Assembly (NCBI GenBank): GCA_964487565.1
Contig: CAZARN010000001.1
Span: 93,536-157,535 of the forward strand
From: an uncultured Clostridium sp.
GTDB taxonomy: Bacteria; Bacillota; Clostridia; Christensenellales; CAG-138
Direction: 5' to 3'
DNA length: 64,000 bases
Made by a program: the position numbers and the translations under genes. Below are positions 17,242-26,587 of the stretch, piece by piece (positions within the stretch are counted from its first letter, which is position 1; each line of letters begins with the position of its first letter). The notes under the pieces were generated by a model, which was given only the letters and a program-made list of their open reading frames with translations, made no database searches and had not been told where the DNA came from.

Positions 17242-17459
17242 AAAAGCGCCCCCCTGAGGGAGGCGCTTTCTGTGCGTATATCGGGTTCCCCAACGGGGAG
17301 TTTGAATTACGCGCGAACCTTCTTGACGGTCACGACGGCGGCGGCGACGAGCGCGAGAGCGATCATCACGAAGCCAACCACGGTGGTGGCGTCACCGGTC
17401 TGCGGGGGCTCGACGGTGGGGTTGGTGACGGTGACATAACCGGCGGGGTACACGAGGGT
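17242..17459. repeat. Outer inverted repeat, left copy (3' end of gene A plus its terminator)
   Basis: This 218-bp segment is identical, apart from one silent GGT/GGC difference, to the reverse complement of 20759..20976. It encodes TLVYPAGYVTVTNPTVEPPQTGDATTVVGFVMIALALVAAAVVTVKKVRA. Confidence 0.85.
17245..17267. terminator. Terminator hairpin downstream of surface-protein gene A, forming part of the outer inverted repeat
   Basis: AGCGCCCCCCTGAGGGAGGCGCT is flanked by A and T tracts. It mirrors the terminator after gene B. Confidence 0.5.
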
Positions 17460-18431
17460 CTCAACGACCTCGTCGATGGTGCCAAAGTACTTCACGAAGT
17501 GAGCCTTGGTCATGGCGTTGCTGCCGTCATACTGGAAGCCAAGAAGCGCGAGGAAGTTATCGAACACGGCCTTGATGGCTTCGTACCTGCCGGTGGTGTC
17601 GCTGACGCCCCAGGCTTCAGTATCGTCGACACGGAAGATGTAGCCGCCGTTGGAAGCGGTGGAACGGGTGACATAATAAGTGCCGTCGCCTTTGCCGCCG
17701 TTGGCAACAGTCAGTTTGATCGCGCTGCCGGCGTCATCGTTCACATAGCCGTCCTTGACGGGGAACACAACAGTGTTCTTGCCATCGAAGATGGAGAAGG
17801 TGCCTTCGGTTGCGGCATCAACACCATTTGCGGTAACGGTGAAGGACTTGGTTCCCTTTGCGTTGTAAGCAACGAAGGTGTCCCCTTCCCACACATTGTA
17901 GTAACCGACGGACGCCTTGACGGTGGCATCCTTGCCGCCGGTGGTGCCCTGGCCTACAAACTCGAACTTGTACTCAAAGCCTTCGCTGGCAGTGTCGAGC
18001 GTGGTGCTCCAGGACTTGGCATCAACAACAACGTTCTTGGTGGTGCCGGCCTCGGAACCATCAGACAGCTTGGTGATATAGGTGGAGACCTTATCGATCT
18101 GGATGTAATCGGTCGAAACCTTTACCTTGAGGCCGCGGGCTGCGAGAAGCTTTACGTTGGCAGCGCTCAGATCGGCCTCGGCGGGGATGCTGACGACGAC
18201 CATGAAGTGCACGGGGGTGCCCTTCACGAGGGGATAGGTAGCGGTGAGCTCCTGATAGAGGCTGCCGAGGACGGCAGTGTTCTCTTTGGTCTCAAGGCCG
18301 TAGAGCTTGAAGGAAATAGCAGTAGCGGGGTCCTCATCAACCTTGATCGGATCCCAACCGGCTGCCATGGTGGGGATGGCGATGGCAAGCGCCATGGCCA
18401 GAGCCAGAACGAGTGCAAACAGTTTCTTCAT
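17307..18431 (-). CDS. Cell-wall-anchored surface protein, paralog A, with a signal peptide and a C-terminal (S/P)PXTG sorting signal (PPQTG)
   Basis: The 374-aa product has the signal peptide MKKLFALVLALAMALAIAIPTMAAGW. Its C-terminus is PPQTGD followed by a hydrophobic segment and a KKVRA tail. The mature region is about 50% identical to paralog B. The track ORF extends upstream to 18509 through an unlikely TTG/ATG extension. The ATG at 18431 matches the start of paralog B. Confidence 0.7.
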   Translation of the reverse strand: MKKLFALVLALAMALAIAIPTMAAGWDPIKVDEDPATAISFKLYGLETKENTAVLGSLYQELTATYPLVKGTPVHFMVVVSIPAEADLSAANVKLLAARGLKVKVSTDYIQIDKVSTYITKLSDGSEAGTTKNVVVDAKSWSTTLDTASEGFEYKFEFVGQGTTGGKDATVKASVGYYNVWEGDTFVAYNAKGTKSFTVTANGVDAATEGTFSIFDGKNTVVFPVKDGYVNDDAGSAIKLTVANGGKGDGTYYVTRSTASNGGYIFRVDDTEAWGVSDTTGRYEAIKAVFDNFLALLGFQYDGSNAMTKAHFVKYFGTIDEVVETLVYPAGYVTVTNPTVEPPQTGDATTVVGFVMIALALVAAAVVTVKKVRA

Positions 18432-18439
18432 CTCAGAAA
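18345..18439. repeat. Inner inverted repeat, left copy (5' end of gene A)
   Basis: This 95-bp segment is identical to the reverse complement of 19815..19909. It covers 8 nt of 5'UTR (TTTCTGAG), the ATG and codons 1–29 (signal peptide ... WDPI). Confidence 0.85.
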
Positions 18440-18543
18440 CCATGCTGCATAAGTATAAATTATATGCCGCCCTGAAAAGGACAGCATTTTTTGGTACGGG
18501 GGTTTGCATCGCGCTTGCTCACATGAAGCCGACAGTGCGGCGC

Positions 18544-19626
18544 TCATCCGCCGCCAGGCCCTGAACCGATATATGTGTTGAGGACTGCGGCCGCCTGCGC
18601 GCGTTTTGCTTCGGTCAGATGGGTGTATATCGCGAGCGTCATCTTCACATCCGCGTGCCTCATGAACGCCTGCGCGCTCTTTATGTCCACGCCCGCATCA
18701 TAAAGCATGGTGCAGTATGTGTGCCGCAGCATATGCGGCGTTATGCTGCCGATGCGCCCCGCGTCCGCGCTCTGACGGATGTGCTTCATCAGGCACGTCC
18801 ACGCGCACACGAACGCGCTGTATGTCATGAGCCCGCCGTCCGCGCCCGGGCATATCCATTCCGAGCGTGAACACGCCTTCTGCTGCGCAAGCGCGCCGAG
18901 AAGCACGGCCGGTATCGGCACGCGGCGCGAGCCCGCGCGGGTCTTGGGCGTTTTGAGCTCCGGCGTATTCTTTGCGAAGGAAACGGCGCGGCGCACGGCA
19001 AGCTCCGAAGCCTCGAAATCGATATCCTCCCACGAAAGCGCAAGCGTTTCGCCCCGGCGAAGTCCGCAGTAAAGCATCAGCATGGAGGCGAGCCACAGCC
19101 TTTGCCCCCGCGCGGCGGTGAACGCCTCCTGCTCATACGCAGAAAGCGCGCGGCGCGGCTCCCGCGCCGCGCCCGCCGCTTCCACGCGGGCGAAAGGATC
19201 GCCCGTCATGAGCCCCTCGTCATTCGCAAAGCCGATTATCTCCCTCACGACGGCCTTGATATCGCGCAGCGTCGTCGCCGCGTATCCCTCGCGCGAAAGC
19301 GCGCAGAGCATATCGCGCAGGTCGTTCGGACGGAGCGCGTCGAGCGCGGTCGAGCCAAGCGCGGGCAGGATGTGTCTGCCGATGAGGGAAGCGTATTTCT
19401 TTTTCGTGTTTGCGGCAAGCGCGGTCTCGCGCTGCGCGAACCATGCTTCCTCGGCCTGCGCGAAGGTCGGCCGCGGTTCCGTTTGGGCTGACGCCGGAGG
19501 GCGCAAACCGTCACATTCGGGGTATTTCCCGAGAAATATGTCGCGGGTTTTGCGCGCGCGGCGCACAAGGTCGAGCCGGCGGCGGTCTTTCCACGCCGCG
19601 TGGCGCGTTTTCAACATAAGCTCCAT
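18544..19626 (-). CDS. Tyrosine-type site-specific recombinase/integrase
   Basis: The 360-aa product has a C-terminal catalytic domain with R...HxxR...Y residues (HMLRHTYCTMLYDAGVDIKSAQAFMRHADVKMTLAIYTHL). It has a GGAAGGAG Shine-Dalgarno sequence. Confidence 0.85.
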   Translation of the reverse strand: MELMLKTRHAAWKDRRRLDLVRRARKTRDIFLGKYPECDGLRPPASAQTEPRPTFAQAEEAWFAQRETALAANTKKKYASLIGRHILPALGSTALDALRPNDLRDMLCALSREGYAATTLRDIKAVVREIIGFANDEGLMTGDPFARVEAAGAAREPRRALSAYEQEAFTAARGQRLWLASMLMLYCGLRRGETLALSWEDIDFEASELAVRRAVSFAKNTPELKTPKTRAGSRRVPIPAVLLGALAQQKACSRSEWICPGADGGLMTYSAFVCAWTCLMKHIRQSADAGRIGSITPHMLRHTYCTMLYDAGVDIKSAQAFMRHADVKMTLAIYTHLTEAKRAQAAAVLNTYIGSGPGGG

Positions 19627-19693
19627 TTATGGAACTCCTTCCTCAAAGCTAAAAGTGCTTCGAAATATTTATTAAGAATTCGTAATAAAAGCG

Positions 19694-19722
19694 TTGACAA
19701 CGGTAATATTAGATGATAATAT
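19694..19722 (+). promoter_or_regulatory. Sigma-A promoter inside the candidate invertible segment, currently oriented toward gene B
   Basis: TTGACA (19694..19699), a 17-nt spacer and TAATAT (19717..19722) are followed by a 5'UTR that contains a small hairpin at 19771..19787 and the AAAGGAG Shine-Dalgarno sequence at 19805..19811. Confidence 0.45.
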
Positions 19723-19814
19723 GATGTCGTGCAATACGGGATAGTACCCAACAGCGGCATTTATTGCCTGCCGGGGTAACGCCCCGGCGACACACACAAA
19801 TTTGAAAGGAGTTT

Positions 19815-19909
19815 TTTCTGAGATGAAGAAACTGTTTGCACTCGTTCTGGCTCTGGCCATGGCGCTTGCCATCGCCATCCCCACCATGGCAGCCGGTTGG
19901 GATCCGATC
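19815..19909. repeat. Inner inverted repeat, right copy (5' end of gene B)
   Basis: This is the reverse complement of 18345..18439 (95 bp, identical). The repeat begins 1 nt after the divergence point of the upstream sequence. Confidence 0.85.
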
Positions 19910-20911
19910 CTGCCGTCCACCACCCCCACTGAGGCCATCACCTTCAAACTTATGGGCCTTCAGACTGAAAAGAACACCGCAGTCCTCGGCGGCCTCTATG
20001 AAGAGCTTACCGCTACTTATCCCCTCGTAAAGGGTACTGCTGTTCACTTCGTGGTTTATGTAAATGTACCCGCCGAAGCGAAGCTCAGCGCCGCCAACAA
20101 GTCCCTTATCGCGAACAGGTATCTCAACCTTAACGTTGCCTGCGATAACATCACTCTTGACAGCGTTACCACCTGGACCAACGGCGTCGAAGGCGCAAAG
20201 GTCAACCTTGCCGGTGCGAAGAGCTTCACCACCGCTTGGGGTACCGGTTGCTACGGTCAGGAATACAAGCTTGAGTTCTGGGGCAGCGGCGTCACCGGCG
20301 GTAAGGATTCCACCGTCAAGGCTTCCCTCGGTTACTACAATGCCTGGGAAAGCACCACTTTCAAAGCTTACAACGCTGACGGCGATCTCGCCTTCACCGT
20401 TACCACCGATAATCTTGACAAGGCTGTTGCGACCTATTTTGAGATCAAGGATGCGGACGGCAACGTCATGAAATTCCCGGTTGCCAAGGGCGTTATCGAT
20501 ACCAGCAAGGTCATCACCCTCAAAGTTGGTTCTAATACCTATGACGTGACCAGGTCCACCGTTTCCGGTATTGCGTTCAAGCTTGCCGAGAAGGTTCTTG
20601 ACGAGAAGAGCACCGGCGACGATGCCAAGACCTATGCAGCGCTGAAGAAAGTCTTTGACAACTACTTCGCAATGCTGGGCTTCACCTATGACGGAGCCAA
20701 CGCCATGACCGCCGAGCACTTCACCAAGTACTTCGGCACCATCGACGAGGTCGTCAATACCCTCGTGTACCCCGCCGGCTATGTCACCGTCACCAACCCC
20801 ACCGTCGAGCCCCCGCAGACCGGTGACGCCACCACCGTGGTTGGCTTCGTGATGATCGCTCTCGCGCTCGTCGCCGCCGCCGTCGTGACCGTCAAGAAGG
20901 TTCGCGCGTAA
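19823..20911 (+). CDS. Cell-wall-anchored surface protein, paralog B, with the same signal peptide and PPQTG sorting signal as paralog A
   Basis: The 362-aa product has its ATG at 19823, preceded by an AAAGGAG Shine-Dalgarno sequence. Its N-terminal 29 aa and C-terminal 50 aa are identical to paralog A. The centre is divergent. Confidence 0.75.
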   Translation: MKKLFALVLALAMALAIAIPTMAAGWDPILPSTTPTEAITFKLMGLQTEKNTAVLGGLYEELTATYPLVKGTAVHFVVYVNVPAEAKLSAANKSLIANRYLNLNVACDNITLDSVTTWTNGVEGAKVNLAGAKSFTTAWGTGCYGQEYKLEFWGSGVTGGKDSTVKASLGYYNAWESTTFKAYNADGDLAFTVTTDNLDKAVATYFEIKDADGNVMKFPVAKGVIDTSKVITLKVGSNTYDVTRSTVSGIAFKLAEKVLDEKSTGDDAKTYAALKKVFDNYFAMLGFTYDGANAMTAEHFTKYFGTIDEVVNTLVYPAGYVTVTNPTVEPPQTGDATTVVGFVMIALALVAAAVVTVKKVRA

Positions 20912-20976
20912 TTCAAACTCCCCGTTGGGGAACCCGATATACGCACAGAAAGCGCCTCCCTCAGGGGGGCGCTTTT
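20759..20976. repeat. Outer inverted repeat, right copy (3' end of gene B plus its terminator)
   Basis: This is the reverse complement of 17242..17459. Confidence 0.85.
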
Positions 20977-21124: not shown

Positions 21125-21153
21125 TTGAACAGGGTGGCCTGGCGTGATAAAAT
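21125..21153 (+). promoter_or_regulatory. Sigma-A promoter candidate for iorAB-ptb
   Basis: TTGAAC, a 17-nt spacer and TAAAAT lie about 60 nt upstream of iorA. Confidence 0.35.
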
Positions 21154-21211
21154 CAAAATGAATTAAAGTAATCCGCCGGTCAATTCCGGCCATAGTGGAG
21201 GCGCATTTCTT

Positions 21212-24634: not shown

Positions 24635-26587
24635 TCATTTGGATTTTATCACGCCGTCCCTGTATGCCTGAAGGAGGACCATCAGATCCTCAATGCGATG
24701 CTGAATTTCCTCGCCGGTGTCTATATCGGCGACCATAACGCGGTGCGGGAACTCATCAACGCGGAATGTGTGGGAGGTTATGTCCCGGCTGTGCTCGACG
24801 GCGTCCTCGTGCGTGGTGAAAGGCTCGTGCGCCGCCATGTGCATGCCGCGGGAATTGAAAAACATGGTGTATCCGGCAATGCCGGTCTCGCGCTGATATG
24901 CGCGGCAGAAGCCTCCGTCGATGACGATGAGCCTGCCGTTGGCCTTGAGCGGGCTTTCGCCTTCCTTGGCCTTCACGGGGATGTGGCCGTTGATTATCCT
25001 GCTCCAGGGCTTGTTGCAGTCGAACGCGGCAAGCACCTTGTTGCAGAATTTCTCATCGTCATAGTTGTCGTAATAAGCGTTTTTCGGCTCCTTCCAGGTC
25101 GACTTGTCGTCGATGAGCGCGCGCTCGAAGGTGGAGATGTGGTCGCGCCCGAACACGGGTGAATTGCGTCCGCACCAGAGGAACCAAAGAAAATCCTGCC
25201 CGACGGCCTCCTCGTCGGAGCCTACGGGCGCGAAGACGCCCTGACGCGCGAGCTTATCGGCATAATCGAAGAAATCGCGCCCGGATAATTCCATGCCGGC
25301 CATGCTGAAGGTCATGAAGCTTCCGCCCTTGTTGCACGGCACGCAGCCGTGGAAGAGCAGATTGCCGTTGCAGCGGCGGTAGATCCCGCCGACGCGGCAG
25401 AGAAAGCGCGCGTGGAGCTGCAATTTTTCACTGCGGCGGAATGCGGTGACAAGCTGATCCATGAGGCCTTGCTCCTCGTTCGTGAGGGCGGTCGGGTTTT
25501 GCGGGTCAACTGTCGGGAATACCTTGTCGCGCAGCTCATATTCCTTATCCTTGATGGTGATGGCGCCCGTGGTCCAGTTCACACGTGAAAGCATGTCGCG
25601 GTCTTCCATCTTATATTCGGGCCTGCGGCGCACGAGCTGCCCCTCAAGCTTATACATTATGACGCTTATGGCTTTGTGCATCTTGGCGTAAAGGCCGGTG
25701 TCGCGCGTTTTGAACGGCTCAACGGGCAGGTTCCTCGGCGTGAAGACGGGGCTTTCGTCATACTGCTGCTGCGCGAACATCGCAAGCGGCAGAAGGTTGA
25801 TGCCGTATCCGTTTTCGAGCATGTCAAGATTGTCATACTGCAAACAGTTTTTGACCGCGACCGCGACGCAGGCGGGACTTCCGGCGGCCGCGCCCATCCA
25901 AAGCACGTCATGGTTGCCCCATTGTATGTCCACGTCGTGATATGTCATGAGGTTATCGAGTATGTCGTCCGCGTGAGGTCCGCGGTCGAATATGTCGCCG
26001 ACGATGTGAAGCTGATCGACCGTCATGCGCTTTATGAGGGTCGCAAGCTCGATGATGAATGTGTCCGCGCTGCCGGTCCTTATCACGGCGTCGATAATGT
26101 TGCTGTAATATTGCTCCTTGTTGCCGCCGGCGTTTGAGGTGTTGAGCATCTCCTCGAAGATATAGGCAAATTCGCGGGGCAGCGCCTTCCTGACCTTTGA
26201 GCGCGAATATTTGGAGGTGGAGATCCTGCTCACCGCGATGAGCCGGCGAAGCGTCACCCTGTACCAGTCGTCAAGATCCGCTTCATGCGTGCGGGCTTCG
26301 TTGAGCTTTTCGCGCGGATAATATATGAGGGCCGAAAGCTCGCGCCGCTCGCTCACCGTGAGCGATTCGCCAAGCGCCTGACGCACTTTTTCCGCGATCG
26401 CGCCCGAGCCGTTGTTGAGTATGTGCGTGAAGGCCTCGTTCTCGCCGTGGATATCGCTCATGAAATGCTCCGTACCCTTGGGCAGATTGAGTATGGCGGT
26501 GAGGTTGATTATCTCGGCGCTTGCCGCCGGTATTGTCGGATATTCACGCGCAAGCTGCTTGAGATAACGGATTTCACGATCGGTCAT
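24635..26587 (-). CDS. fbp: Fructose-1,6-bisphosphatase class 3
   Basis: The 650-aa product has an N-terminus and metallophosphatase motifs (FMSDIHGENEAF...GDIFDRGPH...GNHD) typical of Bacillus-type FBPase III. Confidence 0.85.
   Translation of the reverse strand: MTDREIRYLKQLAREYPTIPAASAEIINLTAILNLPKGTEHFMSDIHGENEAFTHILNNGSGAIAEKVRQALGESLTVSERRELSALIYYPREKLNEARTHEADLDDWYRVTLRRLIAVSRISTSKYSRSKVRKALPREFAYIFEEMLNTSNAGGNKEQYYSNIIDAVIRTGSADTFIIELATLIKRMTVDQLHIVGDIFDRGPHADDILDNLMTYHDVDIQWGNHDVLWMGAAAGSPACVAVAVKNCLQYDNLDMLENGYGINLLPLAMFAQQQYDESPVFTPRNLPVEPFKTRDTGLYAKMHKAISVIMYKLEGQLVRRRPEYKMEDRDMLSRVNWTTGAITIKDKEYELRDKVFPTVDPQNPTALTNEEQGLMDQLVTAFRRSEKLQLHARFLCRVGGIYRRCNGNLLFHGCVPCNKGGSFMTFSMAGMELSGRDFFDYADKLARQGVFAPVGSDEEAVGQDFLWFLWCGRNSPVFGRDHISTFERALIDDKSTWKEPKNAYYDNYDDEKFCNKVLAAFDCNKPWSRIINGHIPVKAKEGESPLKANGRLIVIDGGFCRAYQRETGIAGYTMFFNSRGMHMAAHEPFTTHEDAVEHSRDITSHTFRVDEFPHRVMVADIDTGEEIQHRIEDLMVLLQAYRDGVIKSK

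Follow-up and report, generated by a model that had tools for sequence, protein, structure and literature searches.

Why would a bacterium keep two closely related surface-protein genes at one locus and furnish only one of them with the signals needed to express it? The question is raised by positions 17242-20976 of the 64-kb stretch analyzed here (hereafter the window), which comes from contig CAZARN010000001.1 of an uncultured Clostridium sp. Two divergent, paralogous genes, A and B, encode predicted surface proteins that are 60% identical, and a tyrosine recombinase gene lies between them. On balance, we favor the reading that the segment separating A from B is a promoter toggle driven by the recombinase that it encodes, which would make expression of A and of B mutually exclusive; that the segment inverts, and that this recombinase is the catalyst, is what we infer from the organization and conservation of the locus.

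The proposed mechanism treats the segment (18440-19814) as an invertible expression cassette. Its ON end would supply a promoter, a structured leader and a Shine-Dalgarno sequence, and its OFF end, marked by a terminator-like hairpin, would supply no ribosome-binding site. The recombinase would exchange strands between two 95-nucleotide (nt) repeats that border the segment and thereby invert it, so that the ON end would come to face gene A and the OFF end gene B. Since the first 95 nt are identical on both sides (8 nt of the 5' untranslated region (UTR), the ATG and signal-peptide codons), both reading frames would survive the inversion. Only the transcription and translation signals would move, from B to A and back, so that at any given moment the cell surface would carry just one of the two wall-anchored proteins, which are 60% identical; this would be a form of phase or antigenic variation. 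For comparison, four related assemblies (L004, L006, L048 and L049) have both flanking genes identifiable, and a fifth locus, L005, is a diverged relative.

A single expression cassette between two surface-protein genes

Gene B is preceded by a compact set of expression signals (Table 1). The first-pass annotation had called its promoter the only strong one of the locus, and this is borne out: it is the best promoter site inside the locus, and the other site with 10 of 12 matches (21029-21000, minus strand) lies outside. The Shine-Dalgarno sequence is indeed located where it had been placed, within the 1375-bp segment between the inner repeats, and its distance from the ATG, 11 nt, is near the upper limit of what is usual. 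A hairpin in the 5' UTR, also part of the earlier description, is present, and the fold of 19729-19830 (102 nt, the leader and the first codons of gene B) has z = -2.8. A search of Rfam with the leader gave no match.

The cassette has a long history outside this locus. Single-copy relatives from the human gut, whose proteins are about 35% identical, keep it nearly base for base from the -35 box to the ATG: conserved are the -35 box with TCGTAATAAA upstream of it, the 17-nt spacing, the TG-preceded -10 box, two leader hairpins, the CA-rich tract, TTTGAAAGGA and ATGAAGAAACTGTTTGC. Every aligned locus retains the -35 box. The -10 box reads TATCAT in the two loci with a divergent recombinase allele (L006 and L048), which keep the TG and the spacing, and TAACAT in the single-copy human-gut relatives, which keep the TG two bases before it. 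We take the promoter and leader to be real because they are conserved in distant single-copy homologs, and the cassette appears to be the ancestral expression unit of this surface-protein family. The conserved leader, which was compared between the upstream regions of L057, L063 and L065 and window positions 19670-19822, may be mRNA-stabilizing or regulatory.

Gene A is the sole gene examined that is without this cassette of promoter, leader and Shine-Dalgarno sequence. Its upstream region reads GCAGCATGG, followed by the repeat start TTTCTGAGATG, which confirms the earlier statement that it has no Shine-Dalgarno sequence. It had also been described as having no promoter other than read-through from the recombinase gene. 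The first half of this description stands; read-through is unlikely, since it is probably blocked by the terminator-like hairpin that separates the recombinase stop codon from gene A. A lone perfect TATAAT (18464-18459, minus strand), which that description missed, lies in the hairpin tail, 27 nt from the start codon of gene A on its upstream side; no -35 box accompanies it, and it could give weak basal transcription of the gene. In L005 (positions 2190-2260) the hairpin of the OFF end is absent, and the recombinase frame enters the repeat, where the TGA of TTTCTGAGATG closes it 1 nt short of the ATG that follows, an arrangement that could couple translation of the recombinase and the downstream gene.

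These signals bear on an alternative in which nothing flips. The locus would then be an inverted gene duplication with the stranded integrase gene of a decayed element in its middle, the repeats would be the conserved ends of paralogs, and gene A would be either silent or expressed at a low level by signals of its own. The lone TATAAT upstream of gene A fits such an origin. Set against it is the condition of gene A itself, which is intact in all four related assemblies, with no stop codons and no frameshifts, and evolves no faster than B: the ratio of nonsynonymous to synonymous substitution rates (dN/dS) is 0.5-0.8 for gene A versus 0.4-0.7 for gene B. Such integrity and such a B-like ratio fit poorly with a gene that is permanently silent. 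Taking these points together with those given below, we consider a locus that does not flip unlikely.

Table 1. Positions, strands and properties of the features of the locus (aa, amino acids; ORF, open reading frame; IR-L and IR-R, left and right inner repeats)
Feature	Positions	Strand	Remarks
Sigma-A type promoter	19694-19722	plus	TTGACA-17-TAATAT; 10/12 matches; TG extension before -10 box; faces gene B
5' leader	19729-19822	plus	About 95 nt; three predicted hairpins, CA-rich tract, Shine-Dalgarno sequence
Strongest leader hairpin	19769-19789	plus	GC-rich; GCCGGGG-UAAC-GCCCCGGC
Shine-Dalgarno sequence	19805-19811	plus	AAAGGAG; ends 3 nt before IR-R; 11 nt to gene B ATG
Terminator-like hairpin	18487-18464	minus	10 bp and A/T-rich tail; between recombinase stop codon and gene A
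Tyrosine recombinase gene	18544-19626	minus	360 aa; own AAGGAG 8 nt before ATG
IR-L, inner repeat	18345-18439		8 nt of 5' UTR, ATG and 28 further codons of gene A
IR-R, inner repeat	19815-19909		5' end of gene B
Outer repeat, left arm	17242-17585		Gene A 3' end (anchor signal) and terminator; terminator-like hairpins
Outer repeat, right arm	20633-20976		Gene B 3' end and terminator; terminator-like hairpins
Gene A	17307-18431	minus	ORF, 374 aa; predicted surface protein; start MKKLFALVL...
Gene B	19823-20911	plus	ORF, 362 aa; paralog of A; currently joined to promoter, leader and Shine-Dalgarno sequence
A-specific sequence			AAGGTTGATGAGGAC
B-specific sequence			CTGCCGTCCACCACC

The recombinase and its candidate crossover sites

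The recombinase scores 85.9 bits against the Pfam model PF00589 (cut-off 27.1), and all of its catalytic residues are present (R190, K228, H298-x-x-R301, H324 and Y334). Its dN/dS is 0.21-0.31, even between alleles with a synonymous divergence (dS) of 0.70. Judged by this purifying selection and by the intact catalytic residues, the enzyme looks functional, which is not what would be expected of a stranded gene at a locus that never flips. The best solved relative is the Tn1549 integrase Int (6EMY; E = 3.5e-17, residues 88-343), and the PHROG_1 integrase family is matched with E = 5e-65; the N-terminal 53 residues do not align with integrases of the Tn916/Tn1549 type. A scan of GTDB genomes with the recombinase returned only relatives that are at most 30% identical over a long alignment, none of them informative. 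Neither a Xis (HTH_17) gene nor any other mobile-element gene was found in the 1375-bp segment, and it has no element ends and no transfer genes. Because no Xis and no other element gene accompanies it, the recombinase looks like a domesticated integrase, and the segment itself is in all likelihood not the remnant of a mobile element, a further point against the decayed-element origin.

The arms of the inner repeat are 95 nt long, 100% complementary and 1375 nt apart, and the first 44 nt of the repeat occur twice in the window versus zero occurrences expected. The first-pass annotation had the repeats start exactly at the ATG; this needs correction, as 8 nt of repeat precede the ATG (19823). 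The inner boundaries of the repeat are sharp, and it is here that the special feature of the locus lies: at -8, the leader typical of the family is replaced, on the side of gene A, by the recombinase-distal sequence of the segment end. No smaller inverted repeat around the promoter alone was found at the locus.

Three mismatches separate the two arms in L005 and leave 26 nt as the longest perfect stretch. These first 26 nt of the repeat, TTTCTGAGATGAAGAAACTGTTTGCA, are the sole part that is both identical in the two L005 arms and unchanged from the window, and within them the dyad GTTTCT-N7-AGAAAC spans the ATG. We infer the position of crossover from this coincidence and propose the dyad as a candidate core site; as there are several dyad symmetries within the inner repeat, the core cannot be fixed from sequence alone.

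The length of the repeats invites a second explanation, in which the segment does invert, by RecA-dependent homologous recombination over the 95-nt repeats or the outer ones (344 nt, 90% complementary), much as in the sap system of Campylobacter fetus, and the recombinase is not the catalyst. Perfect identity over 95 nt suffices for homologous recombination, and the repeats are far longer than a typical recombinase core site. This explanation nevertheless seems improbable to us, since an intact, selected recombinase gene lies within the segment in every strain, and since L005 retains the architecture although its perfect stretch is not long enough for RecA to act on efficiently. Recombination between the outer repeats would exchange the positions of A and B and leave the proteins unchanged.

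Orientation, alleles and the wider family

The architecture of the locus is kept in L004, L005, L006 and L048, and L049 shows the half that comprises the recombinase gene and gene A. In the four related assemblies the flanks are 96-100% identical to the window, and identity is 100% over the repeat, leader and OFF end wherever these are covered; both segment ends are thus identical in L004, L006 and L048, and the OFF end in L049. Such perfect conservation of both ends between strains argues against a locus that never flips. The recombinase gene, compared over window positions 18650-19680, is only 65-80% identical to that of the window, over its full length in L006 and L048 and over a part in L004 and L049. 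Two recombinase types can be told apart, which differ by 20-35% in nucleotides (dS 0.70), and L004 and L049 are mosaics of both.

Several findings weigh against inversion. In the window and in all four related assemblies the promoter faces B and the OFF end faces A, with no inverted contig among them; the alleles of L005 are too diverged for an orientation to be assigned. Contigs encoding the recombinase, P0001-P0003, P0085 and P0086 were examined, and all scorable ones are oriented as in the window. Proteins predicted for the inverted form (B with an OFF-type MVSE or MQTP... extension, and A with an ON-type MKGVFSE start) were absent in an exact look-up among 15 billion proteins, in which only OFF-form A, starting MVSE, and plain-form B are on record. 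The nearest relatives of the recombinase, P0010 and P0011 among them, have about 40% identity to it and are ordinary integrases of mobile elements, encoded behind Xis-like HTH_17 genes, and the models of the FimB and FimE invertases, NF007371 and NF007370, give 29.4 and 23.9 bits, far from their cut-offs of 222 and 221. Finally, four loci with no recombinase nearby (L057, L059, L065 and L067) share identical first 75 coding nt, and L065 and L067 have bodies only 51-65% identical to the L059 reference protein despite their identical 5' ends. Since identical 5' ends are a trait of the family even where there is no recombinase, a perfect repeat does not by itself prove a crossover site, and paralogy with family-wide constraint can plausibly account for the inner repeat.

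The uniform orientation, the conserved ends around a variable middle and the clustering of the recombinase with element integrases are all what a duplicated locus with a stranded integrase gene would present. They also temper two claims of the first-pass annotation. It had held that inversion would carry the promoter, the leader and AAAGGAG from B to A: the geometry is as described and is strengthened by the comparative data, and the inversion itself finds no support in the window or the four assemblies, which share one orientation. It had further argued that so precise an arrangement marks the repeats as crossover sites and not merely as conserved coding sequence; that argument is weakened by the identical 75 nt of relatives without a recombinase and retains the sharp inner boundary in its favor.

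Two apparent signs of inversion were discarded. The breaks of Logan contigs 30 nt inside each repeat are uninformative, as with k = 31 they are expected at any repeat, and N-terminal extensions in other lineages (MIVQTGRPQKQ...), considered as OFF forms, are the translated conserved leader.

A third allele bears on another explanation, which concerns how variation mainly arises. L060 (1-1146; JGI Ga0116247_10086944) carries, at the position of gene B next to iorA, an allele (P0085) about 64% identical to A, which follows an identical leader and 95-nt repeat and is closer to A than to B (dS 0.37 versus 0.47). This indicates that alleles are exchanged at the locus. Non-reciprocal exchange, with gene A serving as a silent donor that converts B, or with strains swapping alleles through the conserved ends, would account for L060, and also for L057 and L059, which have different alleles at one chromosomal site. 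It would leave the recombinase and the leaderless gene A unexplained, and we give it little chance of being the explanation of the locus, although it may coexist with the toggle. In L057 and L059, both human-gut relatives, the alleles (392 aa and 378 aa) stand at the same site next to yhbY and obg, and on both contigs 242-648 nt of sequence precede the gene before the contig ends.

A more detailed form of the promoter toggle can be offered tentatively. The recombinase would be an integrase of the Tn916/Tn1549 lineage, domesticated as an invertase that acts on the core GTTTCT-N7-AGAAAC over the start codon. Two diverged, recombining alleles of it (dS about 0.7) would be maintained within near-identical flanks, and the leader that it moves would be one found family-wide and not in Rfam.

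The proteins encoded by A and B both open with the signal peptide MKKLFALVLALAMALAIAIPTMAAGW, and their C-termini, read directly, consist of PPQTGD, 21 hydrophobic residues (a membrane helix) and KKVRA. This ending is probably a sortase-type (LPXTG-type) sorting signal: it scores just under the cut-off of TIGR01167 (15.2-15.3, with 15.2 for gene A, against 15.9) and reaches 16 with NF033846 (cut-off 23.5). No Pfam domain was found in either protein. An AlphaFold model of B (predicted local distance difference test score, pLDDT, 84.8) consists mostly of beta strands, and a Foldseek search with it gave only weak matches to Gram-positive pilins, with template modeling (TM) scores of about 0.25.

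The surface-protein family as a whole numbers 266 hits, for which no Pfam domain is recorded and few names are given by the sources, and literature searches returned nothing on the family or the locus. Most of the lineages examined have one copy of the gene and no recombinase in its vicinity, and the same holds for all 14 loci from a scan of JGI metagenomes with an alignment of the surface proteins. In ADurb.Bin248-like relatives the gene adjoins the same iorA, iorB and ptb genes that follow gene B in the window. In the window, the iorA-iorB-ptb operon is bracketed by a 21-nt inverted repeat (21141-21161 and 24635-24655; 20 of 21 positions complementary), whose left arm overlaps a promoter-like TTGAAC-17-TAAAAT and whose right arm overlaps the stop codon of a minus-strand gene of 650 aa.

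Likeness to known switches

If the segment flips, an uncultured anaerobe of the Clostridia type can alternate between two versions of a probably abundant wall-anchored protein. This would give it a way of evading phages, predators or recognition by a host, and would show in compact, self-contained form how an integrase from a mobile element can be recruited to regulate genes. The switch takes up no more than 1.6 kb in all and would be easily tested in a reporter.

Other switches share parts of this design. In the Hin system of Salmonella, which underlies flagellar phase variation, a serine recombinase acts on 26-bp hix sites and requires Fis as well as an enhancer. Hin turns a single operon on or off, and the other flagellin is silenced by way of a repressor. 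Like the segment described here, the invertible segment of Hin carries the recombinase gene and an outward promoter and decides between two surface antigens; unlike it, the present segment encodes a tyrosine recombinase and lies between two divergent paralogs that would be served directly. In the sap system of C. fetus, too, a single promoter sits on an invertible segment between oppositely oriented, homologous surface-layer genes with a conserved 5' region. That segment is about 6 kb or larger, contains secretion genes and no recombinase, and inverts in a largely RecA-dependent manner, whereas the segment described here has 1375 bp and carries the recombinase gene.

Among the Mollicutes, a mobile promoter shared by paralogous surface-protein genes of opposite orientation is known from Mycoplasma bovis (vsp), M. 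agalactiae (vpma, with Xer1) and Ureaplasma (mba/UU376 and UU172/UU171). The sites there lie in conserved 5' regions; the gene for the tyrosine recombinase belongs to the locus itself in the case of vpma (Xer1), and for Ureaplasma genes elsewhere in the genome have been proposed (PMC3047005; PMC2268961). Those systems involve multigene families of lipoproteins and short sites of about 21-35 bp; the present locus has two proteins of the sortase type in a Clostridia-like organism, and its recombinase, related to those of Tn916 and Tn1549, is encoded inside the segment. A Firmicute counterpart is found in the cwpV and flagellar switches of Clostridioides difficile, in which a tyrosine recombinase, RecV, inverts DNA upstream of a cell-wall protein gene in the case of cwpV (PMC2784873; PMC5386303). 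The likeness extends to the type of recombinase and to the cell-wall protein gene; the cwpV switch differs in being a short element downstream of a fixed promoter, which acts via a terminator to turn one gene on or off and whose recombinase is encoded elsewhere. By sequence, the closest relatives of the recombinase are the Tn916/Tn1549 integrases (6EMY), and here it is accompanied by none of the Xis gene, transfer genes or element ends of those elements. The novelty of this locus lies in its recombinase lineage, its protein family and the host group; a mobile promoter shared by two genes is itself a well-known design.

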